A stretch of DNA of 64,000 bases, from NCBI GenBank assembly GCA_009844405.1, contig VYBO01000043.1, positions 4,927-68,926 of the forward strand, in the 5' to 3' direction. Positions 5,271 through 38,420 of this stretch are shown here, piece by piece. The stretch comes from Acidimicrobiaceae bacterium (GTDB taxonomy: Bacteria > Actinomycetota > Acidimicrobiia > Acidimicrobiales > Aldehydirespiratoraceae). Within the stretch, counting starts at the first letter, position 1; each line of letters starts with the position of its first letter. The notes below the pieces were generated by a model. It did not search any database. It was given only the letters and a program-made list of their open reading frames with translations, and was not told where the DNA came from. A program made the translations under genes and the position numbers.

Positions 5271-6226
5271 CCGCCACAGACGACACGATGGCATCGGAAG
5301 CCGGCACCGGCGCCGCCGATGCGGCCCCGCCCGAGGGCGTCACCGTCCTTGCCGACCTGCGATCGCACCTGCGCAAGTCCAAGGCAGGCATCTCGGGCAT
5401 CATCATCTGCTCGCTGTTCGCGCTGGTGGCCATCCTCGGACCGTGGCTGCCACTCATCAAGGATCCCACCAAGCAGAGCCTGCCCGACAGGCTCACGCCC
5501 CCGGTGGGCTGGGGCGGAACTTGGGCCCATCCCCTCGGCACCGACCAACTCGGGCGCGACATCCTGGCCCGCCTCATCGACGGCGCCCGCATCTCGCTGC
5601 TGGTGAGCGTGACCGCGGTCATAATCGCGGCCATCCTGGGCACCGTCCTCGGACTCGTCGCGGGCTACATCGGCGGGAGGATCGACACCCTCATCGTCTC
5701 GGCCGCCGACGTGCAGATGGCCTTCCCGGGCGTGCTGGCCGGGCTGATCCTGGTGGCCGCGTTCGGCCCGAGCGTGTGGCTGGTCATCATCGTCGTCGCC
5801 ATCTCCAGCTGGATGGTGTTCACCAGGGTGGGCCGGAACCTGGTGCTCACCCTCAAGACCTCGCTGTTCGTGGAGGCCTCCGAGCTCAGCGGCACGCCGT
5901 CGAGCCGGGTCATGTGGCGTCACCTGCTGCCCAACCTGGTCAGCTCGCTGATCACGCTGTGCGTGCTGGAGCTGGCCGCGGCCATACTGGCGGAGTCGGC
6001 GTTCGCCTTCCTCGGCTTCGGAGTGCAGCCGCCCCGCTCGTCATGGGGGCTGATGATCCAGCAGGGCCGCAACTACGTCACCGGCGACGGGTGGTGGATC
6101 GTGACCTTCGCCGGCCTGGCCATCGCCATCGTGGTGCTGGGCGTCAACCTGCTGTCGCTGTGGCTCCAGTCGTTCAACGACGTGGCCGAGCGGGAGCAGA
6201 TCATCCTGGAGAGGCCGGGCGCCTGA
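5267..6226 (+). CDS. ABC transporter permease, DppC/OppC family
   Basis: In frame with track ORF 4712..6226. ATG at 5267 overlaps the upstream stop. Sequence LGTDQLGRDILARLIDGARISL is typical of DppC/OppC. Confidence 0.9.
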   Translation: MTATDDTMASEAGTGAADAAPPEGVTVLADLRSHLRKSKAGISGIIICSLFALVAILGPWLPLIKDPTKQSLPDRLTPPVGWGGTWAHPLGTDQLGRDILARLIDGARISLLVSVTAVIIAAILGTVLGLVAGYIGGRIDTLIVSAADVQMAFPGVLAGLILVAAFGPSVWLVIIVVAISSWMVFTRVGRNLVLTLKTSLFVEASELSGTPSSRVMWRHLLPNLVSSLITLCVLELAAAILAESAFAFLGFGVQPPRSSWGLMIQQGRNYVTGDGWWIVTFAGLAIAIVVLGVNLLSLWLQSFNDVAEREQIILERPGA

Positions 6227-7350: not shown

Positions 7351-8316
7351 ATGAACGCGCCGGTGACACCGCTGGTGGAGAGCCGGGACGTCAGCGTCCA
7401 CTACACACGGTGGGTCGGCAGCCGCCGGCGGACCGTCTACGCGCTGGACGACTTCAGCATCGCGGTGGCGCCGGGCGAGACGGTGGGCCTGGTGGGCGAA
7501 TCGGGCTGCGGCAAGTCCACCGCGGGCCGGGCGCTGCTGGGAGCGGTGAAGCCGACCAAGGGCCAGGTGATCTTCGAGGGCAGGGACGTGACCGACCTGA
7601 GCCGGCGGAACTGGCGGGCCATGCGCAAGAACGTCCAGATGATCTTCCAGGACCCCTACTCGGCGCTCAACCCCAAGATCAAGATCCGCGACAGCATCGC
7701 CGAGCCGTTCCTGGTGCACACCCGCAAACGGGGCGCGGAGCTGGACGCGGCGGTGGGCGAGCTGCTGGAGACGGTGGGCATGACCGCCGGCGCGGCCGAC
7801 AAGTACCCGCACGCCTTCTCGGGCGGCCAGCGCCAGCGGATCGTGATCGCCCGGGCCCTGGCGCTGCATCCCTCCTTCGTGGTGGCCGACGAGGCCACCG
7901 CCGCCCTCGACGTGTCGATCCAGGCCCAGATCGTGAACCTGCTGGTCGAGCTCAAGGACACCGTGGGACTGTCGTACCTGTTCATCTCCCACAACCTGGC
8001 CGTGGTGCGCCACGTGTCGGACCGGGTGGCCATCATGTACCTGGGCCACCTGATGGAGATCGGCAGCCACCACGACATCTACGAGAACCCGACCCACCCC
8101 TACTCCAAGGCCCTGCTCTCGGCGGTGCCCGTGCCCGACCCGACTACCCGCGGCAACCACGAGCCCCTCAAGGGCGACCTGCCCAGCCCCATGGACCCGC
8201 CGAAGGGCTGCCGGTTCAACACCCGCTGCCCCCTAGCAGTGGACCAGTGCTTCCACGAGCGCCCCCCGCTGACGGAGCGCTCCAGCGGCCACCTGGTGGC
8301 CTGCTGGGTGAATTGA
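7351..8316 (+). CDS. ABC transporter ATP-binding protein, DppF/OppF type
   Basis: Walker A GESGCGKST, signature FSGGQRQR and Walker B FVVADEATAALD are present, plus the C-terminal PPKGCRFNTRCP motif. The track start at 7324 is an alternative. Confidence 0.9.
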   Translation: MNAPVTPLVESRDVSVHYTRWVGSRRRTVYALDDFSIAVAPGETVGLVGESGCGKSTAGRALLGAVKPTKGQVIFEGRDVTDLSRRNWRAMRKNVQMIFQDPYSALNPKIKIRDSIAEPFLVHTRKRGAELDAAVGELLETVGMTAGAADKYPHAFSGGQRQRIVIARALALHPSFVVADEATAALDVSIQAQIVNLLVELKDTVGLSYLFISHNLAVVRHVSDRVAIMYLGHLMEIGSHHDIYENPTHPYSKALLSAVPVPDPTTRGNHEPLKGDLPSPMDPPKGCRFNTRCPLAVDQCFHERPPLTERSSGHLVACWVN

Positions 8317-9494
8317 GCGAACCGGTCACCAGCGCCGCCGGCGGCACAGGCGACAGCGAGAGCGGCCTGACCGCCCGCTGGGTGACGTTCGGCTACCTGT
8401 TCACGCTGTACTTCATCCTCGGCGGGGCCGAGACCATGATGTCGCCGCTGTTCCCGCTGGTGGAGCCCGACCTGGACATCACCGAGAGCAACCTGGCCGC
8501 CATCCTGGCCTCGGTGTCGGCGGGCATCGCCGCGTTCAACATCCTCGGCGGCATCAGCAGCCGCTGGCTCAGCGACCGGTCGATGGTCCGGGCCTCAGCG
8601 ACGGCGCTGGCGGCAGGGATGGTGCTGTCGGCCGTGGCCCAGACCTTCTGGGTGCTGCTCATCGGCCAGACCCTGCTGGGCGTGGCCTTCGGGATCTACT
8701 TCCCGCCCGGTCTGGCCAGCGTGGCCCGGCTGTACCGGGGCGCGGAGGGCAAGGCCATCGCGGTGTGGGGCTAGGCGTACTCGTTCGGTCTTGCCGCGGC
8801 CGCGCTGAGCGTGTTCGCCGGAGAGAACTGGCGCTGGGTGTACGTCGGTTGCGCGGTTCCGTCGCTGCTGGCCATCGCCTACGTGCCCCGGTGGGTGGAG
8901 GCCGACCGGGGCACAGCCCCGGAGCCCTGGCTGGCCCAGCTCGTGCAGTACGCCCGCAAGCAGACGTACCGGCTGGCCGGCTACGCCAGCTTCGGCGGGG
9001 TGTCGATGCACTTCGTGGTGATCGGCTTCTCGCCGGTGTTCTTCGAGAGCCAGGGCGTGGACCTGAGGCTGGTGGGCGTGCTGCTGGCCGCAGGCCGCTT
9101 CCTGTCGGCCCCGGTCAAGCTGGTGGGCGGCGCCATGTACGACCGGCGGGGCGGACCGTGGACGGCCCGGTTGATGATGGTGAGCACCGCAGTGCTGGGA
9201 CTGCCGATGCTGCTGCTGCCGGCCCAGGTCGGCGTGTGGATGCTGGTGCCCTTCGTCGGGATGGCGGTGTCGGTGTTGCCGGTGTCCAACGCCATGCTGG
9301 TGGCGGCGCTGCCGGCCCAGTCGGGCTGGGGCATTGGCACGTTCCGGGCCGGGCTGCTGGGCTCGGCCGCCCTGCTGTCGGCCATCATGAGCGGCCTGCT
9401 GAGCCTGGGCGTGCCCCTGTCCGCGCTGATGCTGGCCGCTCTGGGCCTGCCCGCCCTAGTGGCCGTAGCCATGCATCGGGCCGCGGCGTGCTAG
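8313..9494 (+). pseudogene. MFS transporter interrupted by a single in-frame TAG (8772-8774)
   Basis: Track ORFs 7410..8774 (C-terminal part) and 8811..9494 are in the same frame (both coordinates are 0 mod 3). Reading through gives ...GKAIAVWG*AYSFGLAAAALSVFAGENWRWVYV, a continuous MFS helix pattern. A TTG at 8313 overlaps the dppF-like stop. Confidence 0.75.
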
Positions 9495-28465: not shown

Positions 28466-31400
28466 TCACACGGTGAGGGCCTGCCAGCAGACGAGGTGGA
28501 CGTCGGCGGCAGTGATCTCAGGGAGGGGCTCGGGCACCGGCTGGGGCTGCAGGCCCTGCTCGTCGATCACCCGCAGCACGGCCTCGGCCTGCGCGGCGGG
28601 CTGCTCCGCCGGCCTCAGGGCGGCTCGCACCAGGCGGGTGACGCGCTCGGTGTAGGGCGCCTGAAGGCTGTCGATGGCTCGGGCCACGTCGTGCTGGGTC
28701 ATCGACGGCGGAGGATTGGAACGCACGATCTCGGCCGCCTGTCGCAGGGCGGCAGGTATGCGGGGCTCGAGGTTGGCCTTGTCGGCGAAGTGGTTCCAGC
28801 GCGCCACGATGTCGGCGCGGGCCGCCTCCCATGCCGTGAAAGCCGTCTCCAAGGTCGCGTCGTCGAACTGGCGCGGCGTCTCGAACCCGTCGGCGGGCCG
28901 GGCGAGCCACAGGCATTCGAGCGTGTCGCTGCTGACCCGGCCCGATGCGCCCACGAACCTGAACTGCGGGTTCGGGTCGTCGCCCACCCTGGCGCAGAAC
29001 ACATGCCCGGACTCCCCGCCGGGGTGTGCCGCCATCCCCGAGCCGGTGCCCCAGGGCAGGCGCTGCAAGACGCGATGCATGTCGGGATCGTCGACGGCGC
29101 GCCGGAGCTCGGCCCTGAACTCCTCGCCGGACTGTGCGCCGAGATCGGTGCCCCCGCGCTCGAAGATCGCGGCGTCCTCGGCGCGGAGGCGCTCGATCTC
29201 GGCCCGGGTCTGGCTGAAGCTGCGATCGAGGCTGCGCTCCTGGTCGGGTATGACCTCACCGACTCCGATGGAGGCCGCAGCTTGGGCAATCTTGCGGTTC
29301 AGCCGCTCCTCGAGGCCCAGAAGCTCGTCAAGGCGCCTGTCGGGAAACACGCAGCTGATGAACACTTCGCGGTGCCTGGAGCCGATCCGGTCGATGCGAC
29401 CGTGGCGCTGCACGAGCCGCATCGGGTTCCACGGCAGGTCGTAGTTGACGATGTGGCGGGCCTGTTGGAGGTTCACGCCCTCGGCAAGCACGTCGGTGGT
29501 GACGAGAATGTCATAGAGGTCGGGATGGTCGAGCCCCGGCGCCGCGGTGCGGGGGGCGAAGCTCAGCGCCGGATCACGGGCATGCCCCGAGCCGCCGGTG
29601 TGCCAGGCGATCCTGCCTCGGTAGGCGGACAGTCGCTCGTCTCGCACCACGGCATCCTCGAGGAAACCGACGATCCATTCCACCGTGTCGGCGAAGTAGG
29701 TGAACACCAGCACTTTGCGGCGGTCGCGGGTGTCGTCGGCGCCTATGCCGTCGCGCTCGGCCTGCTGGACGACGCCGGCCAACTCATCGGCCAGCGCGGC
29801 CAGAGTGGGATCGTCGGAGCGCGTCACCGTCTGTGCCTGCCGGGCGAAGTCGCTCAGCAGTCGGTGGTCGCGGCGGGCGTGGGCCACCATCTTGCCGACG
29901 TCGAATCCGGCGGCATCCTCCAGATCCTCGTGGTGGGCGTCGAGGTACTTGTCGATCTGTTCCAGGTCGTCGGAGTCGGTGCTCGCCCAGTCGGCTATCG
30001 CGCCGCCGGTGGCGACTCGGCCGTGGAGCTCGGCGAGTTCCGCGAACGCCAGGCAACCCTCGGCCATCCGCCGGCAGGTCTTCGCGAACGCCCACGGGGA
30101 AGACTCGAAGCGCTTGAGCAGGCCCGAACGCAGCAGCCCGGCGAGCTGCAGCTCATATGCGTCCGGGTTGTCGCGGCCGAGCCGGTAGTTGGAGGGCACG
30201 TAGCGCGCCAGGGTCAGCACCGCGTCGTCGGTGTCGGGGGCTGCGTCCGGGTTGAGCGCGGCCGCAAGCCGCTCGAAGAAGCCGGGCAGCACGCCGTCCA
30301 GGTCGTAGGTGACCTTGTGGACTCTCGGGGTCGGGAACACGATCTGGTGGTCCGCGCCGTCGATGCGCACCGTGTCGTTGGCGTAGTGCTTCTTGACGAA
30401 CGAGCGCGTGCGCCGGACGGCCACCGCGTCGAGCACGTCGAACAGGTGCTGGGGTGACAGGTCGTTGGGATCCTGGCGCATGGCCTCCGCGAAGTGGTCG
30501 CGCAGCGAGCGGATCCCGTCAGCGGCGAAGGTGCCGTCGTTGCGCAGGAAGTATCCGAGCAGGTGGTAGAGGTCCCAGAGGCTGTTGTTGACCGGGGTAG
30601 CGGTCAGCAGCACCAGCTTCTTGGGCGGGAGTCCGGCCAGCAGCCTCCGCAGCGACTCGGCCCTCTGGGTGGACGGGTTGCGCAGATTGTGGGCCTCGTC
30701 CACCACGATGAGGGCGTAGTTGTGAAGGTCGGGCCCGAGCGGGCGCGACGGCTGGCGCCCGGCCTCTTCGGCATGTTCGGCCCTCTCGCGGTTGAGTCTC
30801 GGATCGTCGGCGAGCGCGTCGAACGACACCAGGGTCATCGGCAGGTTGTGCTGCTGCCTGAAGGCCTCCCAAGGGCCGTCGCGCAGCGTCGCCGGGCAGA
30901 TGACCAGCACTCGCTGGCGGCGTTCGACGGCGGCTTCCTCGATGAGCTTGCCCGCGAAGTAGGTCTTGCCCAAGCCGACCTCGTCCGCGACGAGCACGCC
31001 GTTGTAGGCGTCGAGCAGCTTTCGGGCGCGCCACAGGCCGTCCTTCTGGAACGAGGTGAGCTCGATCGTCGACCGCGGCAGGGCGGCCTCGTCGTCTTCG
31101 GCCAGTTCGCGGCCGTAGCGCTCCCACAGCATCCGCAGATAGATGAGCTGCGGAGGGTGCGGCTCGAAGCGGGGAGCGAAGATCGAGGCGAGGTCGTAAT
31201 CGGCGGCGGAGCCCCAGAGCCCGTCGAACCATTGGGCCACAGCCGTCACCGTGTGGGGGGTGTAGTTGCCGAGGTTCAGCTCGAGGTTCGTCGAGAGGCC
31301 GGCGCGGGTGAAGTTCGACGACCCCGAGACGACTCCGTGGGAGTGGGTGGCCACCAAGAACGCCTTGCCGTGAAGGAACCTGTCCTCTAGGCGGCGCACC

Positions 31401-31816
31401 TGCACTCGGCCGCTGCGCAGCCAGTCCAGCAGCCGGCGCGCCGTGCTGTCGGCCTCGACGGTGAACCCGAGCAGGTCGCGGTCGGCGGCGAGCGCCTCCT
31501 CGTGGGAGTCGAGCAGGTCGCCGACTCGGCGCAGTTCGGCGCGGTGCGAGTTGGCCGGCTCGCGCTTGAGCGCACGTCGTCGGCTCTCCGGCGGCGCGGG
31601 CTCAGCGCCGAGCAGCAGCCGCACGCCTGACAGCTTGTCGAGCGAGTCTGCGAGCAGCGAGTAGCCACCGACGTTGAAGTAGGCGGTGGCGACGTCGAGC
31701 CGAACGTCGTGGGCGAACCCGTCGGCGGCGTGGCCGATGAACCCGTTGAGTGCATCGGCCACCGTCGCGCCGTGCTGGTTGACAGCCAACTCGGGCTTGG
31801 CCTCCCCGCTACTCAT
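28466..31816 (-). CDS. PLD-family (HKD) nuclease domain fused to SNF2-family helicase
   Basis: N-terminal HGKAFLV...GSSNFTRAG is a single HKD motif. It is followed by SNF2 motifs LVADEVGLGKT, VVDEAHNLRN and LLTATPVNNSL, and a helicase-C region, LAEGVNLQQARHIVNYDLPWNPMRLVQRHGRIDRIG. Confidence 0.85.
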   Translation of the reverse strand: MSSGEAKPELAVNQHGATVADALNGFIGHAADGFAHDVRLDVATAYFNVGGYSLLADSLDKLSGVRLLLGAEPAPPESRRRALKREPANSHRAELRRVGDLLDSHEEALAADRDLLGFTVEADSTARRLLDWLRSGRVQVRRLEDRFLHGKAFLVATHSHGVVSGSSNFTRAGLSTNLELNLGNYTPHTVTAVAQWFDGLWGSAADYDLASIFAPRFEPHPPQLIYLRMLWERYGRELAEDDEAALPRSTIELTSFQKDGLWRARKLLDAYNGVLVADEVGLGKTYFAGKLIEEAAVERRQRVLVICPATLRDGPWEAFRQQHNLPMTLVSFDALADDPRLNRERAEHAEEAGRQPSRPLGPDLHNYALIVVDEAHNLRNPSTQRAESLRRLLAGLPPKKLVLLTATPVNNSLWDLYHLLGYFLRNDGTFAADGIRSLRDHFAEAMRQDPNDLSPQHLFDVLDAVAVRRTRSFVKKHYANDTVRIDGADHQIVFPTPRVHKVTYDLDGVLPGFFERLAAALNPDAAPDTDDAVLTLARYVPSNYRLGRDNPDAYELQLAGLLRSGLLKRFESSPWAFAKTCRRMAEGCLAFAELAELHGRVATGGAIADWASTDSDDLEQIDKYLDAHHEDLEDAAGFDVGKMVAHARRDHRLLSDFARQAQTVTRSDDPTLAALADELAGVVQQAERDGIGADDTRDRRKVLVFTYFADTVEWIVGFLEDAVVRDERLSAYRGRIAWHTGGSGHARDPALSFAPRTAAPGLDHPDLYDILVTTDVLAEGVNLQQARHIVNYDLPWNPMRLVQRHGRIDRIGSRHREVFISCVFPDRRLDELLGLEERLNRKIAQAAASIGVGEVIPDQERSLDRSFSQTRAEIERLRAEDAAIFERGGTDLGAQSGEEFRAELRRAVDDPDMHRVLQRLPWGTGSGMAAHPGGESGHVFCARVGDDPNPQFRFVGASGRVSSDTLECLWLARPADGFETPRQFDDATLETAFTAWEAARADIVARWNHFADKANLEPRIPAALRQAAEIVRSNPPPSMTQHDVARAIDSLQAPYTERVTRLVRAALRPAEQPAAQAEAVLRVIDEQGLQPQPVPEPLPEITAADVHLVCWQALTV

Positions 31817-32498
31817 CGGGCTCGATCACCTGCCAGCGCTGCTCTCTGAGCACACCGGCAGCTATGTCCGGGGACCGCCGCACCGCCGCTCGAAGCTGGC
31901 CGTCTCGAAATCGCTGCCGCGACTCGTTCAGAGCCTTCTCCCACCCAGGCCGCGGCTCCACGAGCCGCTCAAGGATGCAGAACTCGATCAAGTCCTCCAG
32001 ACAAGGGCGGTATCGCCGCCCACCGACGGGGAAGTGCAAGTCATCAGGCTTGTGCTTGGGGCGTCCACATCGCTCCAGCATGTCCTGCACCGCGACTGAC
32101 TCGCCATGGAGATGAAAGTGAGCCTCGGGGTACTCATTCGGAGGATCCCGGGTGTAGTCATAGGTCAAGATCGGCTCTGAATTGGTGGCGTGCATGAGCT
32201 TATAGCTGCTCTTGGTCGTGGTGAGAAACCGCTGCGATTCGTCGAGCGCGAGCGTGTGCAACAGGCGCAACGCCAACAGGGCCGGGGCCTGAGATAGGGT
32301 CAGCGCTACTGGGTCACCGCGTGGCTTCAGTCGGGAAATCTGGTTCCCAATCGCAGCGCGACCGCTTGCCTCCATCAGCACGGACAGGCAGAGACCGTGC
32401 GTGAGGGTGCGATTCAGCGCCTTAGTGAGTTCGCCAGCAAACTCCCGAGCTTGGCGATCGAGGTTAGGCTGGCGACGGCTCGGCGAAGGTCGAGACAA
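31809..32498 (-). CDS. Hypothetical protein, 229 aa, translationally coupled to the helicase
   Basis: The stop overlaps the helicase ATG by 8 nt (GATGAGTAG). No recognisable domain. The start is uncertain (TTG at 32498 or internal). Confidence 0.5.
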   Translation of the reverse strand: MSRPSPSRRQPNLDRQAREFAGELTKALNRTLTHGLCLSVLMEASGRAAIGNQISRLKPRGDPVALTLSQAPALLALRLLHTLALDESQRFLTTTKSSYKLMHATNSEPILTYDYTRDPPNEYPEAHFHLHGESVAVQDMLERCGRPKHKPDDLHFPVGGRRYRPCLEDLIEFCILERLVEPRPGWEKALNESRQRFRDGQLRAAVRRSPDIAAGVLREQRWQVIEPDE

Positions 32499-32935: not shown

Positions 32936-33778
32936 CTAACGGGAGATGGCAGCGGACCAGCGGCGAAAATGAACGAGGACCGCGGCATGGTGCTCGGCGT
33001 AGCGGTCGGGGCGCCTGGCATCGAAGGTGCTGTACAGCACGGCCAGATCGTCCTCGTCGAGGCCATAGAGATGCGCCACGCACGCATCGAGCTCGGCAAT
33101 CAGATCGTCCTTGGCCTTGCGATCGTTGACGGAGCCGACCGGCACTCCTACATTCCTGGCCCAGTCGGCGAAGCGATCGTCCACCGCAGCCAGCCGCCCC
33201 GCAATCTCGACGACGCGGTCGCGAACTGGGTGGCCCTCGCCCGGGTCGGGCACCGGCAGCGCATTGAGGACATGGAAGTTCAGGCTCATCTCGACGGTCC
33301 GCCGGGCACACCAGTCCATAATCATCCAAGCCAACAGCCCAAGCACGAACGCCTCGTCGCGACAACCACCACGGGTTTGGAGGAGGTATGGACCCTTGTT
33401 GGTGATGACGACCCGAGGCGGGATGAGCGCCGCGACGATGGTACGGGTGTTGGTCGGGTTAGTCACGTCTCGGAAGGCGATGCGCGGATTGCGACACGGC
33501 AGGGTCGCTGGGTCAAGGAGAACCGGCTGGCGTAGTTCAGCGAAGGCTGACCGGACAGTCCGGCTTTGCGACTGGCGCTTCTGCTGAAGGTTAGCCGTGA
33601 TGCTCACAGCATCAGCGCTGTCATAGAAGTCGCCGGTGTCGGGCTGCCAGAGGTTGAAGCTCTTGCCCGCGTAGACGGGCCAGACATCGCCAGTCCTCGG
33701 CTCGGACGGTTTGCTGTCATCGCTGCTGGGCCTCCCTGAGTTGCCGGTAGATCGCGAGGACCTCGTCCCGGCGGTCAT
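32936..33778 (-). CDS. Methyltransferase C-terminal cassette, paralog 2 (possibly non-functional: no start adjacent to conserved WPVY)
   Basis: ...VWPVYAGKSFNLWQPDTG...RIAFRDVTNPTNTRTIVAALIPP...LDACVAHLYGLDEDD is about 60-65% identical to the ORF at 33717..34478. The nearest in-frame ATGs are at 33778 and 33862, both overlapping the paralog-1 3' end. Confidence 0.5.
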   Translation of the reverse strand: MTAGTRSSRSTGNSGRPSSDDSKPSEPRTGDVWPVYAGKSFNLWQPDTGDFYDSADAVSITANLQQKRQSQSRTVRSAFAELRQPVLLDPATLPCRNPRIAFRDVTNPTNTRTIVAALIPPRVVITNKGPYLLQTRGGCRDEAFVLGLLAWMIMDWCARRTVEMSLNFHVLNALPVPDPGEGHPVRDRVVEIAGRLAAVDDRFADWARNVGVPVGSVNDRKAKDDLIAELDACVAHLYGLDEDDLAVLYSTFDARRPDRYAEHHAAVLVHFRRWSAAISR

Positions 33779-34478
33779 CCCACTGCCCCGGACGCCCGAA
33801 GGTGTCGTACACGACGGCGATGTCGTCCTCGTCGAGGCCGTAGAGGTATGCCACGCACGCATCGAGCTCGCACAGGGCCTCTACCCCCCCCCCGGTCGAT
33901 GTCGGGCCAGCTACTGCGCCCACGGGCACACCGACCTCGGCGGCCCAGCCCTCCAATCGCTCGTCGCGCGCGGCGAGGCCTCCCGCCAGTTCGATGATCC
34001 GGTCACGCACCGAATGGCCCTCTCCCGGATCAGGTATTGCCAGAAGATTCAGTTGATGAAAGTTGAGGTGGAGCTCGAGCGTCCGACGCGCTTGCCAATC
34101 GCAAGGCATCGAGCACAGCACTCCCAGCACGTATGCCTCATCCCTAGCGGATCCCGCTAGTCGAAGCAGGTAGGGGGCCTGGTTCGCCACGACGCGATCC
34201 GGCGGGATGAGAGCGGCCACGATCGTGCGGGTGTTGGTCGGGTTGGTCACGTCGCGGAACGCGATCCGGGCTTGGCGGCAGGGTAGCGTTGCTGAGTCAC
34301 GCAGTACCGTCTCGGGCAACTCCGCGAACGCCGACGATTTCGTACCGCTTTGCGATTGGCGCCTGTGCTGAAGGTGCTCTGTGATGGTCGCGGCGTCGAC
34401 GCTGTCGTAGTAGACGCCCGTGTCGGGCTCCCACAGGTTGAACGACGTGCCCTTGTACACCGGCCAAACCCGGCTCAT
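33717..34478 (-). CDS. Methyltransferase C-terminal cassette, paralog 1 (split off or translationally coupled)
   Basis: MSRVWPVYKGTSFNLWEPDTG...RIAFRDVTNPTNTRTIVAALIPP...LDACVAYLYGLDEDD. The ATG at 34478 sits in an ATGA overlap with the third-frame stop of the upstream methyltransferase reading. It contains a G10 tract. Confidence 0.6.
   Translation of the reverse strand: MSRVWPVYKGTSFNLWEPDTGVYYDSVDAATITEHLQHRRQSQSGTKSSAFAELPETVLRDSATLPCRQARIAFRDVTNPTNTRTIVAALIPPDRVVANQAPYLLRLAGSARDEAYVLGVLCSMPCDWQARRTLELHLNFHQLNLLAIPDPGEGHSVRDRIIELAGGLAARDERLEGWAAEVGVPVGAVAGPTSTGGGVEALCELDACVAYLYGLDEDDIAVVYDTFGRPGQWDDRRDEVLAIYRQLREAQQR
33884..33893 (-). repeat. Homopolymer C10 (G10 in gene sense) inside cassette paralog 1
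   Basis: cta + 10 c + ggtcgat, read directly. It encodes the GGG of ...PTSTGGGVEAL. Confidence 0.98.
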
Positions 34479-34503: not shown

Positions 34504-34715
34504 CCGCGCCGTCGTCGTTCATGAACCTGTCCCGGTCGCCGGTGGCGTCGAGTTCGCGGACCGGGCGGAAGCGCCATCGTCGTTCACGAAGAGGCTCCGG
34601 TCGTGGGTCGCGTGGAGCTCTGCGACTGCTCGGAAGCGCCACGTCCGTCGTCCCGGAAGAACCGGTGGCGGTCGGTCGTTGCGTTGAGATCGCCTTGGAC
34701 CGGCCGGAATCTCCA
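34504..34715 (-). repeat. Three diverged tandem units (74, 65, 73 nt) each encoding the WRFR..EL.AT.DR..F..DDG motif in a different reading frame
   Basis: Units lie at 34715-34642, 34641-34577 and 34576-34504 in gene sense. Manual three-frame translation is given in the findings. Confidence 0.85.
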
Positions 34716-34724
34716 TCTCCGACG

Positions 34725-34735
34725 CCCCCCCCCCC
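34725..34735 (-). repeat. Homopolymer C11 (G11 in gene sense) inside the methyltransferase
   Basis: gacg + 11 c + gcagg, read directly from the sequence. Confidence 0.98.
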
Positions 34736-35206
34736 GCAGGCGCGTCGCGCTCATCGAGGTCGCTGCCGTCGAATCTTGGATGCTGCTTCATCTTGCGCCA
34801 GACTCGGAACGCGGCCCGGTTCGGCACCTGCGGGAAGGCGGCCGACTTCGACCAACTTCGGAACTCGGACACCGGCACCAGCTCCGGGCCAGCCTCAAGC
34901 ACTTCCCGATAGTGGACCTGCGAGGATGCTGGACCGGGATAGATGGCTACAAGCGGCTCCGAGGCTTCCGCTTCAAGGCCACCCCCTGGGATTGGTTCGG
35001 GCGTTGGCAGTGCAGATCGCGATGAGGGCAGTTGTGTACCGTCCGTCCAAGCCGTCGAAGGCCCATTGCCCTGTGTTGAGGCAGGTAGCGGCCGAGATGA
35101 CCGCGCGTGAGTGAGCAGCGCCACTGTGTAAGCGTTGTGGACTTCCTCGAAGACCCACCCCTTCTGATTGATGAGCGTGAGCACCGACACCTTGGGCTTT
35201 GCTTGC

Positions 35207-35230
35207 AGAGAGAGAGAGAGAGAGAGAGAG
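35207..35230 (-). repeat. (AG)12 on plus strand = (CT)12 in gene sense, inside the methyltransferase
   Basis: Read directly: gcttgc(ag)x12 atttattcgg. It is translated as SLSLSLSL in the track ORF. Confidence 0.98.
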
Positions 35231-38200
35231 ATTTATTCGGTGCCGCGACATCCGTGACCCGCAGCCGCCATTCTGACATGCCTTCGGAATTCAAGGCCGT
35301 TCGGGGGACAACCAGCCCAAGATGACCTCCGACCCGGATGAGTTCAAGGTTCGCCCACATGAAGGCTTGGTACAGATCTGTCCGGCCCGAGCCGAGACCA
35401 GGAAACGCGACTCTGAGAACAGCCCTCGTCTTCTCGGCCACCTCCGAATCATGTAGAAAAGCTTCCTCAAGGTCAGGCCTCTCCAGGCGCGTCCTAGTGA
35501 TGACTCGTCGCATGGCACCGACCGACAAGCCCCGCATACCCGGCTGGTGCATACCCCACCAGACATGTTCTTGGACGACCGCCTGCTCCCATGGTGGGTT
35601 GCCTATCAGGCAGTCGAAGCCGCTGAGGTCGCCTCGTCTGAACACCTCGGGGAAGCGGGCCGGGAAATGGACGGGGTTCAAGTCCGCTACCGCTCGCCGC
35701 ACGGCATCCGTGGCCGCCAGCGCCTCGAAGACGGCCGGGTCGTAGTGCTCGGGGAGGTCGCAGGCGCCGGCGCGCTGGGCCGCGACCACGTCGAAGATCG
35801 CCCGAGCGGGCGCGACTGCAGCGAAGGCCTCGCGGTGAGCCTCGCGGGCTTGGTCGATCTCGGCCTTGGTGGCGTCGGAGGTGCGGGCCAGCCGGCTCAG
35901 CGCCTCGCCGGCCTCGTCGAGCATCGCGACCAGCTGGTTGCGGAACAGGCTCGGCGCCGACGGGTCGGCGTCGGGCTCGAAGACACGCAGCACGTCGTCG
36001 AGCGTGCCAACGCCGGTGAGGCTGTTGCCCTCGATCAGGTTGTGGTCGAGGAAGCTCAGCGGCAGGCCAGGCACGAACGTGTGGACCCAGATCGACAGTC
36101 GGGCAAGCTCCACTGCGACCCGGTTGAGGTCCACGCCGTAGATGCAGTATCGGGCCACTTGGCGGCGCAGAAGCGAACTGGTCTCGATCTCGTCCTCGCC
36201 GCCGAGAGCCCCCGGGACCGCGACGGCGGCAGTCCTCAGGCGCCGCAGGGTTGCATGCACCCCGGCACCGGCAGAGGGGTTGCGGCTCAGCCAACCCGAC
36301 AGCCTCCGCTCGATACGGTCCACTGCCGCCACCAGGAAGTGCCCCGAACCCATCGCGATGTCGGCGCAGCGGAAGTCGAAGAAGGCCGTATCGACCCCGG
36401 CGACGTCGCCCGCGGTCGCCAGTGCGTCGAGACGGGCGAGATGCTCCTCAAGTGCGGGCTCCAGCGCATGGTCGAGCAGATGCTCCACGGCGAAGGGCTT
36501 CGTGAAGTAGCTGCCGGTGCTCTTGCGCACGCCCGAGCGGTTGTGGAAATAGACGCTCCCTGCGGCCACCTCCACCTCATCGTCGGCCTCCGCGGGAACG
36601 TAGGTGGGCTCACCCTTGAGGAGCTTGACGGTGAGATCCTGCTCGGCCAGCGACAGCTGCGACTCCAGCAGGCCCTCGTAGATCGTGCCGAACGCGCGGA
36701 CCGACAACGACCGGAAGTCCACCGGACCCTCGCCCTCGGGGCTGAGGTCGATCAGCATGGCCGACAGCGCGGGGCCGAGCTCGGCGTCGGTCAGCGGCGC
36801 CATCGCCTCGATGGCCGCGCCCGAGCCGCTCACATCCGGGTCGCGGGAGAACAGCCCGCCGTCGTATGCGGGCAGCGCCCAAGCAATATTGCCGGTGTCT
36901 ATGGCGCTCCAGAGTTGCTTGATGTCGGCCCACATCGAGGTGGCCGCCGCGTCGAAGACCACCGATCCGCGGCGGCGGTCCTCGGCGAGGCGTCTCGCCA
37001 GCCGCGTCAGCGAGTGGTCGGCGTAGCGGGCGTTCGTGCTGTAGGGGAAGCGGTCCATGGCCTCGGCGTAGGCGACGAACAGCAGCCGGAACAGGATCAC
37101 CATCACCTGCTCGTAGGCAGCCCTCAGGTCCTCCGGACCCGGCGCATCGGTGACACGCCTGGCCACCGCGTCGGCCAGTGCGGGCACGGTCTCGGCGTAC
37201 ACCCGCTCTCGCAGCCGGACCGCCAGGTCGGCGGCGAACCGGTCCGACGCCTCGAGCGCCTCCTCGATCTTGCCGCCGGCGTCGAGCGCCTCCGCGGAGA
37301 ACAGCAGCCTCAGGTATCCGGCGTGCTGCTCGCTCAGCAGCGCCAGGTTGGCCTCCACGTAGGTCTCGGCCCGGCCCTTGCGGCCCACGCCGGTGTCGGG
37401 GCGGGCCGCATACAGCCGGATCTCGCTGCCGCGGGTCAACAGCACCCAGTCAGCGCCGTGCGCATCCGCATGCGAGAGAGCCAGGGACACGGGGGTGATC
37501 CCGTCGAAGCGGGCAGCCGGAGCGTCGAAGGGCTCGTCTTCGGAGCAGAACACGGCCGCGGCGCGGCTGTGGCCGTTCACCTTCAGCAGATGGACGTGGT
37601 TGGCATGCTGCTCCAGCCGGAAGCCGAGCCCCTCCGCCAGTCGCCTGCCCCGCAGGCCCAGCAGGGACCGGCCCGACCGCACCGACGCGGCCCAGTCGGA
37701 CCGCTGCGGCAGACCCGAACGGAGTTCCTGGGTGGCGAGCAGGCCCACGTTGCGCAGGCCGGCCTCGAGCCTGGCGTGCTCCGGCGCATCGAGTCCGACC
37801 AGCGCCTTCTGGAGGACGCGCACGGCCGCGTGCAGATCGGGCTCGCCCAAGGCGCAGTCGGCGACCCGCTCGACCGGAGCGGCATCGAGGTCCCACACCA
37901 CTGCCGGGCTGTCCCCGACGGGGCCACACACGGCCACCTGAACCGAGTCCGACGAGGTCGTCGCATCCGCAGGCGCCGGATAGCCCACGATCATCAGAAC
38001 CGGGCTGGCTCGTCCGGCGCGGCGCTTTAGGTAGCCGTCGCGCATCTGGGACGCCTGGGGCCTGCGGGAAGCGGACGCCAGAACCACCTCAAGGCCGTTG
38101 GGCACGACCCGGCCGCGGCAACGCTGAAAGAACGCTCCGCACGGCGCCAACGCTTCAGGGAAGCCTTGCGGCCGGGACCAGCGGTCGGGGTCTCGCTCTG

Positions 38201-38420
38201 GCAGGAAGCGGTCAGCCCAGCTCACGCCCTCGCCCGGAGGTTCGTTTGCACTCCCGGCCCGGCGGGAGCGCATGGGAACGCCGTCCCGCCGTGCCGCTCA
38301 TGGCGACGCACGCTACTGAATCGCGAGCGGCCTTGCCAGGGTGGGTCAGTGGGGCGTCGGGGACGCCCAGCCGACGCCAGCGCGGCTGACCCCACGGCTC
38401 GAGTGCTAGCATTGTGCGAC

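Follow-up and report, generated by a model that had tools for sequence, protein, structure and literature searches.

A stretch of 64,000 nucleotides from an Acidimicrobiaceae bacterium (contig VYBO01000043.1 of assembly GCA_009844405.1, positions 4,927 to 68,926 of the forward strand; hereafter, the window) carries on its minus strand a methyltransferase (MTase) gene in which a run of eleven G residues is followed by three tandem copies of the same short protein motif, one copy in each reading frame. This junction is the subject of the present analysis. The host module is a restriction-modification-like defense module and consists of two genes, a Type IIG-like/DrmMI-like N6-adenine MTase with tandem TaqI-like target recognition domain (TRD) cassettes, and a PLD-SNF2 helicase (Table 1). 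Only three long repeats were found in the 64-kb window, all of them within the MTase gene; they are numbered here as simple sequence repeats (SSR) 1 to 3, and the G tract is SSR2.

The three units that follow SSR2 share the pattern W-R-F-R..A-T-x-D-R..F-x-x-D-D-G and are 78% identical per column at the DNA level; we refer to this ~23-residue strand-turn motif as the hook. The units start at 34715, 34641 and 34576, and the spacings between these starts, 74 and 65 nt, are both 2 mod 3, so that each unit lies one frame back from the preceding one. The U1 frame, which corresponds to a tract of G10, ends at the TGA at 34586-34584, inside the GTG-AAC tail of U2. The U2 frame, which is read with G11 as sequenced, ends at the TGA at 34521-34519, inside the ATG-AAC tail of U3. 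The U3 frame, equivalent to G12, is open through U3 and reaches its stop at 34477-34475, within an ATGA overlap with the start of the first cassette. At the junction, every frame gives the MTase body, a hook and a short tail rich in Gly, Ala and Ser; the tether that precedes the hook is about 3, 28 or 50 residues long, depending on the state.

An initial annotation, made from the letters of the window alone, had described the G11 tract at 34735-34725 with three units in three frames, and the sequence and its translation bear out all such statements. The synonymous differences that it listed between the units are all present (AGA/CGC/CGC, CGG/CGA/CGC, GCA/GCG/GCC, ACG/ACC/ACC and GGA/GGC/GGC), and the table of open reading frames (ORFs) gives the same outcomes of tract length, with G10 leading through U1 to 34584, G11 through U2 to 34519, and G12 through U3 to the ATGA at 34478. 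Two features had escaped it: SSR1, upstream, is out of frame, and both hidden stops are TGA triplets within the GTG-AAC or ATG-AAC tail of the next unit.

Table 1. Features of the MTase locus, in window coordinates
Feature	Positions	Strand	Basis and remarks
MTase body (N-terminal region and Eco57I-type N6-adenine MTase domain)	35232..38273	minus	Pfam Eco57I, E = 7e-14
SSR1, (CT)12.5, at the junction of the body (frame 0) and the next segment (frame 2)	35207..35231	minus	TRF and sequence; out of frame as assembled
ORF2 segment (last MTase-fold strands and small subdomain; ends VWRKMKQHPRF plus tether)	34736..35206	minus	Frame 2 translation
SSR2, G11, frame selector	34725..34735	minus	Sequence
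U1, QGDxN-class motif WRFRPVQGDLNATTDRHRFFRDDG, frame 0; tail without hidden stop	34644..34715	minus	
U2, AExH-class motif WRFRAVAELHATHDRSLFVNDDG, frame 2	34573..34641	minus	
U3, RExD-class motif WRFRPVRELDATGDRDRFMNDDG, frame 1	34508..34576	minus	
ATGA overlap of the U3-frame stop and the cassette 1 start	34475..34478	minus	GGAG ~8 nt upstream; translational coupling predicted
TRD cassette 1, 253 aa, WPVYKG...ELDACVAYLYGLDEDD	33717..34478	minus	PADLOC profile positions 1132-1373
SSR3, G10, within cassette 1	33884..33893	minus	In the window, in the frame completing cassette 1
TRD cassette 2, 308 aa from ATG 33862, WPVY from 33682	32936..33862	minus	PADLOC positions 1132-1371; hidden Markov model (HMM) match
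PLD (HKD) and SNF2 helicase, partner gene	28466..31816	minus	Pfam PLDc_2, SNF2-rel_dom, Helicase_C; PADLOC DrmD, 'HKD+Snf2'

Distribution of the junction and selection on its three frames

The arrangement is not peculiar to this assembly, a possibility that the initial annotation had raised as an argument against its own reading. One genome scan produced 80 loci, and 83 loci were examined with the motif HMM on all three forward frames. At least three staggered units are present in 60 of the 83 (59 distinct loci), two units in 14, a single in-frame unit in seven, and none in two. The seven single-unit loci are without a repeat, and none of them comes from the named sponge-symbiont genera. Among the loci are members of Ca. 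Aldehydirespirator, Poriferisocius, Poriferisodalis, Spongiisociaceae, two metagenome-assembled genomes (MAGs) of Chloroflexota and a Palauibacter MAG; those with at least three units span several Acidimicrobiia genera of sponge and coral symbionts, Chloroflexota, and the Palauibacter MAG. Many of the loci lie on complete, long-read chromosomes.

A repeat precedes the first unit in all 59 distinct loci with at least three units, and nearly always at a distance of 2-40 nt. Its period is 1 in 24 loci, 2 in 22, 4 in seven, 5 in four, 7 in one and 8 in one; in none of the 59 is it divisible by 3. Poly-G, poly-C, CT, AG, CA, and tetra-, penta-, hepta- and octanucleotide repeats all occur at the SSR2 spot across the relatives, and the type differs even between close ones (G11, G15, G12, C13, (AG)26, (GGCA)20, (GACC)19 to 62, (CCGAG)n). 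In one clade with near-identical flanks, the tract ranges from (CT)9.5 to (CT)27.5. Loci L001 and L002 have G15 where the window has G11 followed by CGTCGG, a difference of 15 nt against 17 nt, and the ~99%-identical strain to which L001 belongs therefore sits in the U3 frame. The tract is thus not fixed among relatives, which speaks against an invariant tract, another outcome that the initial annotation had named as contrary to its reading. In genomes with an anchorable upstream frame, the assembled states 1, 2 and 3 stand at 14:18:14. The junctions have two of the features expected of a contingency locus, namely, an in-frame non-triplet repeat (the 59 loci and the G11 tract) and tract polymorphism with conserved flanks.

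The three units represent orthologous classes, QGDxN, AExH and RExD. The QGDxN unit comes first wherever it is present in a three-unit locus, and the order of the AExH and RExD units varies in distant clades. Each class is also found as the sole copy in intact single-chain homologs (QGDxN in six, AExH in 24, RExD in 23), and such canonical chains run through one copy of the motif into the cassette. In three loci the last unit, 65 nt long, has been copied again with little or no change, for a total of four or five units (L006 9775-9905, L007 9844-9975, L009 9710-9905); hence, changes in unit copy number occur, and each of them also shifts the frame.

Pairwise Nei-Gojobori counts (pN/pS) give ratios of 0.23 for U1, 0.32 for U2 and 0.33 for U3 in their own frames, and of 0.95-2.07 in the other two frames; the third codon position is the most variable position in the units. 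This rejects the possibility that only one frame is constrained and the other motifs are its by-products, since every unit has its minimum ratio in the frame that encodes its motif, with values of about 1-2 elsewhere; it likewise rules out that U1 and U2 are products of decay. The off-frame paths that lead to each unit are free of stops: none was found in 3,834 codons of 53 distinct loci, where about 133 would be expected from the frequency of 3.5% in comparable off-frame sequence. A hidden +1 stop is present in none of the 60 first units, in 57 of 64 middle units and in 49 of 60 last units. The codons that create or avoid this stop are chosen accordingly: Val-Asn is encoded as GTG-AAC in 62 of 62 cases, with GTG making up 38% of Val codons in the neighboring cassettes, and Leu-Asn is CTC-AAC in all 12 cases in U1, versus TTG-AAC or CTG-AAC in the middle units. 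These comparisons show that each unit is under purifying selection in its own frame and that the hidden stops are held in place by synonymous codon choice. The units were collected with a motif model, which is a minor concern; essentially every locus of the clade keeps all three.

The TRD module and its attachment to the methyltransferase

Downstream of the units, most loci have the stop of the U3 frame 11 nt ahead of the W codon of the WPVY motif, where it forms an ATGA or GTGA overlap with the cassette start (the split class). In L022, L031-L035, L040, L060, L062 and L082, and in distant clades, the last unit is fused to the cassette in frame; in the distant loci of this fused class, an ATGA or GTGA closes the frame of the penultimate unit, and it shares bases with a Met or Val codon that is in frame with WPVY and lies 14-20 nt ahead of it. 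Three units are followed by one cassette in 37 loci and by two cassettes in 18 loci. A scheme in which three hooks would match three cassettes was rejected, as those 37 loci have three hooks and a single cassette. Second cassettes are without a hook of their own, and must therefore act with a hook in trans.

In the window, cassettes 1 and 2 (32936-34478) are direct tandem repeats with ~64% identity at the protein level, and the 3' end of cassette 1 is shared, in a different frame, with the 5' extension of cassette 2. Stand-alone homologs of the cassettes, 245-285 aa in length, number in the hundreds in a protein search, often with two on the same contig; where the source is named, they come from Ca. 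Poriferisocius, Acidimicrobiaceae, unclassified 'bacterium' MAGs and one Gammaproteobacteria MAG. In a few proteins, the upstream segment, a single copy of the motif and the cassette form one continuous chain. The cassettes match no Pfam family.

We examined an AlphaFold2 model of P0040, a canonical single-chain homolog (mean pLDDT 92). The site that corresponds to the repeat is a low-confidence tether (residues 391-410, pLDDT about 70), and the hook (residues 410-432, with a strand at 411-415) forms one block of pLDDT 96-97 with the TRD that follows. On the basis of this confidence profile, the ordered part of the TRD module is taken here to begin with the motif. The modeled fold resembles CamA, M.BseCI, M.TaqI, BrxX/PglX and BpuSI, and for the region homologous to the cassettes, the counterpart in CamA, M.BseCI and M.TaqI is the TRD with the C-terminal region; by this likeness, the cassette is a TaqI-like TRD with C-terminal helices. 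A PDB sequence search with P0040 found nothing, and the matches came from fold comparison alone.

The PADLOC profile for Type IIG enzymes (REase_MTase_IIG, PDLC03620) is matched along its full length at the locus, by the MTase body at profile positions 101-984 (E = 2.5e-156), by ORF2 at positions 1059-1093 (its only, and weak, PADLOC match), and by each cassette at positions 1132-1373, so that the C-terminal module of the profile occurs twice in tandem in the window. From these positions, the three units fill the ~40 profile positions between the body and the C-terminal module. The Type IIG-like canonical homologs are single chains, and ORF2 is contiguous with the MTase domain in P0040 and P0121-P0239. 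The called MTase ORF (38273-34947, 1,108 aa) continues out of frame past the body to 34947; a candidate internal start, GTG 35190, is found within ORF2.

A probable three-frame contingency junction and its alternatives

We consider it highly probable that the locus is a selected three-frame contingency junction in an MTase gene, with three productive states instead of ON and OFF. The initial annotation had likewise argued that this is not simple ON/OFF and that a motif is met in every frame, and the open paths without stops, the stops held at the codon level and the 14:18:14 distribution of states all agree with it. According to this proposal, a hypermutable non-triplet repeat would be placed in the flexible tether between the MTase body and the TRD module, and replication slippage at the repeat would pick one of the three frames. 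As the hook is written three times, with each copy shifted by one frame, slippage would never remove it; instead, it would select which of the anciently diverged hook paralogs (QGDxN, AExH or RExD) ends up on the MTase chain. The U1 and U2 frames are stopped by the TGA in the tail of the next unit, and only the U3 frame leads into the TRD cassette, through a stop-start overlap in the window and most relatives, and by direct in-frame fusion in others. The TRD cassettes would then be separable specificity subunits tethered by the hook, and the states would differ in the hook paralog, in the length of the tether, and in whether the TRD is supplied in cis or through coupling. The arrangement of the locus leads us to presume that slippage occurs within populations, that the hook docks to a TRD made as a separate chain, and that the states differ in phenotype.

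An extended form of this proposal can be put forward only tentatively. In it, one repeat would select among three hook paralogs that alter specificity or activity, SSR1 and SSR3 would act combinatorially with it, and the off-frame TGA stops would relay ribosomes to the cassette. If so, one tract would give rise to three methylomes or defense states, which SSR1 (joining of body and hook) and SSR3 (cassette 1 versus cassette 2) would multiply further; and the locus would amount to an overlapping code by design, with translation of, and selection on, all three frames of a single stretch, spread over at least two bacterial phyla of sponge and coral symbionts.

Several observations weigh against the three-frame proposal. 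As sequenced, the hook region is not joined to the MTase body, because SSR1 puts the two out of frame. Hooks and cassettes do not vary in number together, as seen in the 37 loci mentioned above. Where a good Shine-Dalgarno sequence precedes the cassette in split-class loci (as in the window, with GGAG), the cassette could be translated in every state, and this would blur any difference between the states. The packing of the hook on the TRD is suggested by the confidence profile and secondary structure rather than by contacts. The loci are phylogenetically related, and naive P values therefore overstate their independence. Finally, heterogeneity of tract length within a population is presumed, and the sole hint of it comes from ten short-read contigs with an identical cassette, all of which break in the poly-C tract or within ~110 nt after it (P0073 across samples). 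Metagenome pattern scans for tract-length variants returned 0 and 1 matches and no population series.

Short-read contigs of this kind, with identical cassettes, are L018 and L086-L094 (in their first 1-250 nt), L002 and L084 (at their starts), and several of them begin with C5-C10. With short-read contigs ending in or near the repeat, these loci are systematically fragmented in Illumina assemblies. The window has 100% identity with a scaffold from sample SAMN12347672 (ENGE20-1_SAMN12347672). A look-up of the window's cassette protein retrieved only this scaffold and one Logan contig, whose first base lies 105 nt upstream of the cassette.

Among the other explanations, the repeat may be kept for the length or composition of the tether, or be a mutational by-product, with the hooks serving to make frameshifts harmless and with all states equivalent. 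Such buffering would suit the production of body, hook and short Gly/Ala/Ser-rich tail from every frame, the cassette's own start codon, often with a Shine-Dalgarno-like GGAG, the nearly equal frequency of the states among genomes, as if none were penalised, and the location of the repeat in the low-confidence tether of the model. We think it rather unlikely, as the hook classes are kept distinct across genera and each is also the sole copy in some canonical enzymes. Moreover, one interrupting mutation would remove a harmful repeat, yet long pure repeats of many types have been renewed at this one site in 59 of 59 loci; the absence of periods divisible by 3 is equally hard to reconcile with buffering, since triplet repeats would vary the tether without a frameshift; and SSR1 and SSR3 in the same gene are plain ON/OFF switches.

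Slippage could also take place at the level of RNA, by RNA polymerase or through ribosomal frameshifting, and in this case all isoforms would be made in every cell, with no heritable switch. Runs of G or C of 10-28 nt are known elsewhere to provoke transcriptional slippage, and runs of this kind are present in 24 of the 59 loci. The remaining 35, however, have units of 2-8 nt, including (GACC)62 and (AGCCA)36, for which DNA replication slippage is established and RNA-level slippage is not, and tract lengths differ between close relatives in the DNA itself; this explanation appears improbable. Hardly any weight can be given to the idea that the gene is a decaying pseudogene or an artefact of assembly, with U1 and U2 as relics of duplication, a sequencing error in the G tract, and only one frame that ever mattered. 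The gene is indeed interrupted at several points in this assembly, and homopolymers are prone to sequencing error, but the layout is found in 59 distinct loci, many of them on complete long-read chromosomes, with purifying selection in each unit's own frame, no stops in the 3,834 codons, and hidden stops fixed at the codon level.

Of a different nature is a termination-reinitiation relay, or rheostat, in which the repeat would set one, two or three restart steps before the cassette, and hence the dose of the TRD. Every hidden stop is the TGA of a GTGA, ATGA or TTGA, in which the first three bases could serve as a start in the following frame; a ribosome that terminates in the U1 frame might thus resume in the U2 frame, next in the U3 frame, and at last at the ATG of the cassette. 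It is compatible with the three-frame junction and would be a mechanism within it; we regard it as a possibility, though a doubtful one. The window contains a chain of overlaps that such a relay would use, GTGA (34587-34584), ATGA (34522-34519) and ATGA (34478-34475), and the ATGA or GTGA over an in-frame Met or Val codon in the distant fused-class loci is of the same kind. Among the 105 NTG codons that make the hidden stop, 104 are ATG, GTG or TTG, and one is CTG, with CTG about twice as common locally as TTG. The need for TGA already limits the codon to NTG, however, so that the discriminating signal is confined to the preference of TTG over CTG (6 versus 1, non-independent); no consistent Shine-Dalgarno sequence is seen before the internal restart codons, and the efficiency of reinitiation in Acidimicrobiia is assumed.

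Known switching systems, genomic context and the remaining repeats

Repeat-driven phase variation of MTases is known for Type III mod genes, Type I hsdM/hsdS, and the Type IIG enzyme Cj0031 of Campylobacter jejuni, which has a poly-G tract. The junction described here resembles these phasevarions in that an intragenic non-triplet repeat is located in an N6-adenine MTase of a restriction-like system, that the tract differs between relatives, and that the bacteria are host-associated. The known cases are of the ON/OFF type, with one productive frame and two truncated ones, whereas here three frames are open, each has its own copy of an essential motif, and the off-frame stops are placed by selection; moreover, the hosts are uncultured symbionts of sponges and corals, and the partner is a PLD-SNF2 helicase.

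The Pgl system of Streptomyces coelicolor (BREX type 2), in which a G tract is documented in pglX and is described as an ON/OFF switch, was invoked for comparison in the initial annotation. As an analogy this stands, since both are G tracts in the large adenine MTase gene of an actinobacterial phage-defense system, and the fold is distantly related to PglX/BrxX. Identity of the gene with pglX, or of the system with Pgl, does not: the BREX models for PglX score 15-20 bits, and pglW, pglY and pglZ are not found nearby. Specifically, Pgl/BREX type 2 was rejected with 19.9 bits for NCBIfam BREX_2_MTaseX (cut-off 400) and 15.4 bits for BREX_1_MTaseX (cut-off 500), and the PADLOC PglX models reach E-values of 8e-5 and 6e-4, as against 2.5e-156 for the Type IIG model.

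Three-way or qualitative outcomes have precedents of other kinds. In the poly-G switch of the NgoAV-type hsdS gene, the S subunit made after a frameshift is truncated, and its specificity is altered. There, as here, a homopolymer changes the kind of specificity component that is made, beyond abolishing it; the NgoAV-type switch, however, is part of a Type I system, has two outcomes, and re-encodes no motif in other frames. The (CAAT)n repeat of Haemophilus influenzae lic1 is associated with start codons in more than one frame and with three levels of expression. It is similar in that one repeat produces three states through features in more than one frame, but the lic1 start codons are upstream of the repeat, and in the present case the motif is found in three frames downstream of it, together with programmed stops.

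Switching of TRDs by programmed inversion is known for DrmMI-like, PglX and Type I enzymes. These share the enzyme class of the present locus (DrmMI-like Type II restriction-modification), and silent alternative C-terminal cassettes for specificity likewise adjoin the gene, but the cassettes at the present locus are direct tandem ORFs under the control of repeats and stop-start overlaps rather than of inverted repeats and a recombinase. Separate specificity subunits are typical of Type I HsdS and of Type IIB enzymes such as BcgI, and in most loci studied here the TRD is also a separate polypeptide of ~250 aa; here, however, the TRD module is split behind its first strand, the MTase chain retains that strand as the hook, and in related genomes the two parts are fused.

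Thus, repeat-driven phase variation is known, and what is new is the retention of a motif in all three frames behind the repeat. In a literature search, neither the encoding of one motif in three frames after a repeat, of which the initial annotation knew no described case either, nor phase variation in these symbionts was found to be described. Phase variation by repeats is as a rule binary, since only one of the three frames leads anywhere; here, the three frames have been made and kept productive. The design principle is that one hypermutable tract can encode a three-way choice, and the locus is a natural example of selection on off-frame stop codons. It also extends contingency loci from cultured pathogens to uncultured, high-GC symbionts of sponges and corals, and draws attention to a barely characterised defense module of MTase and PLD-SNF2 proteins. 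For annotation, it concerns loci that are now called as broken genes, along with hundreds of ~250-aa 'hypothetical proteins'.

In 76 of 84 related loci, the PLD-SNF2 gene follows the MTase on the same strand. Pfam gave no nuclease domain in the N-terminal region of the MTase; the PLD domain sits on the helicase partner. At the ~99%-identical locus L001, the called genes comprise, besides the MTase, its two cassettes and the PLD-SNF2 helicase, a PIN toxin pair, ABC transporter genes and phosphoglucomutase; the neighbors of the module are housekeeping genes, and PglZ, PglW, PglY and DrmA/B are absent among the called genes around it. The spacer between cassette 2 and the helicase differs between the two strains: the window has a 229-aa ORF without a family match (31809-32498), and L001 has, on the opposite strand, a PIN-toxin/antitoxin pair (7983-8707). 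As for DISARM class 1, the adenine MTase is of the DrmMI type according to PADLOC, with weaker matches to the MTase domain (E = 6e-59 and 2e-48) than that of the Type IIG profile. The core of that system (drmA, drmB with DUF1998, drmC) is another matter: L001 and L083 have no DUF1998/DrmB gene, and the assignment was rejected. The sole DISARM-like helicase at the locus is the DrmD-like SNF2 helicase with its N-terminal PLD domain. A megablast search of the locus against plasmids gave no match.

The two other repeats of the gene behave as ordinary ON/OFF tracts; a multi-frame device was sought after SSR1 and SSR3, and none was found. To reach the G-tract region from the MTase body, a change of -2, +1 or +4 nt is needed at SSR1, or else internal initiation at GTG 35190; loss of one CT unit would join the body with the next segment. 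The ~99%-identical strain has (TC)14 at this site, which is 3 nt longer and likewise out of frame. In the related symbiont loci, the SSR1 junction contains poly-G, poly-C, CT, or 4-, 5- or 10-nt repeats (period 1, 2, 4, 5 or 10), and canonical relatives have no repeat there. With both flanks anchored, SSR1 is in frame in 16 of 51 loci; seven of these 16 are canonical loci without the repeat, so that where a repeat is present, the in-frame share is only about one fifth.

SSR3 is located ~200 nt before the WPVY motif of cassette 2, and its geometry is conserved: the frame of cassette 1 itself continues to the end of that cassette, the frame of cassette 2 meets a stop within 1-25 nt (in the window, immediately, at a TAG), and the third frame stops ~107 nt further on. 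All three states are present among the genomes. SSR3 looks like an ON/OFF switch for cassette 1, and may possibly provide a choice between the TRDs.

Additional long runs of G or C (13-25 nt) are seen 2-4 kb upstream, in or before the MTase body, in several relatives (L016 ~7302, L028 ~7291, L049 ~5929-5994, L072 ~5951, L054 ~7056); the window has none there. In a distant clade, up to five tandem TRD cassettes follow each other in successive frames (L069 9230-12350, L072 9995-11500), separated by C9-C13 tracts located just before the stop of the preceding cassette, such that a change of 1 nt would lead into the next cassette.

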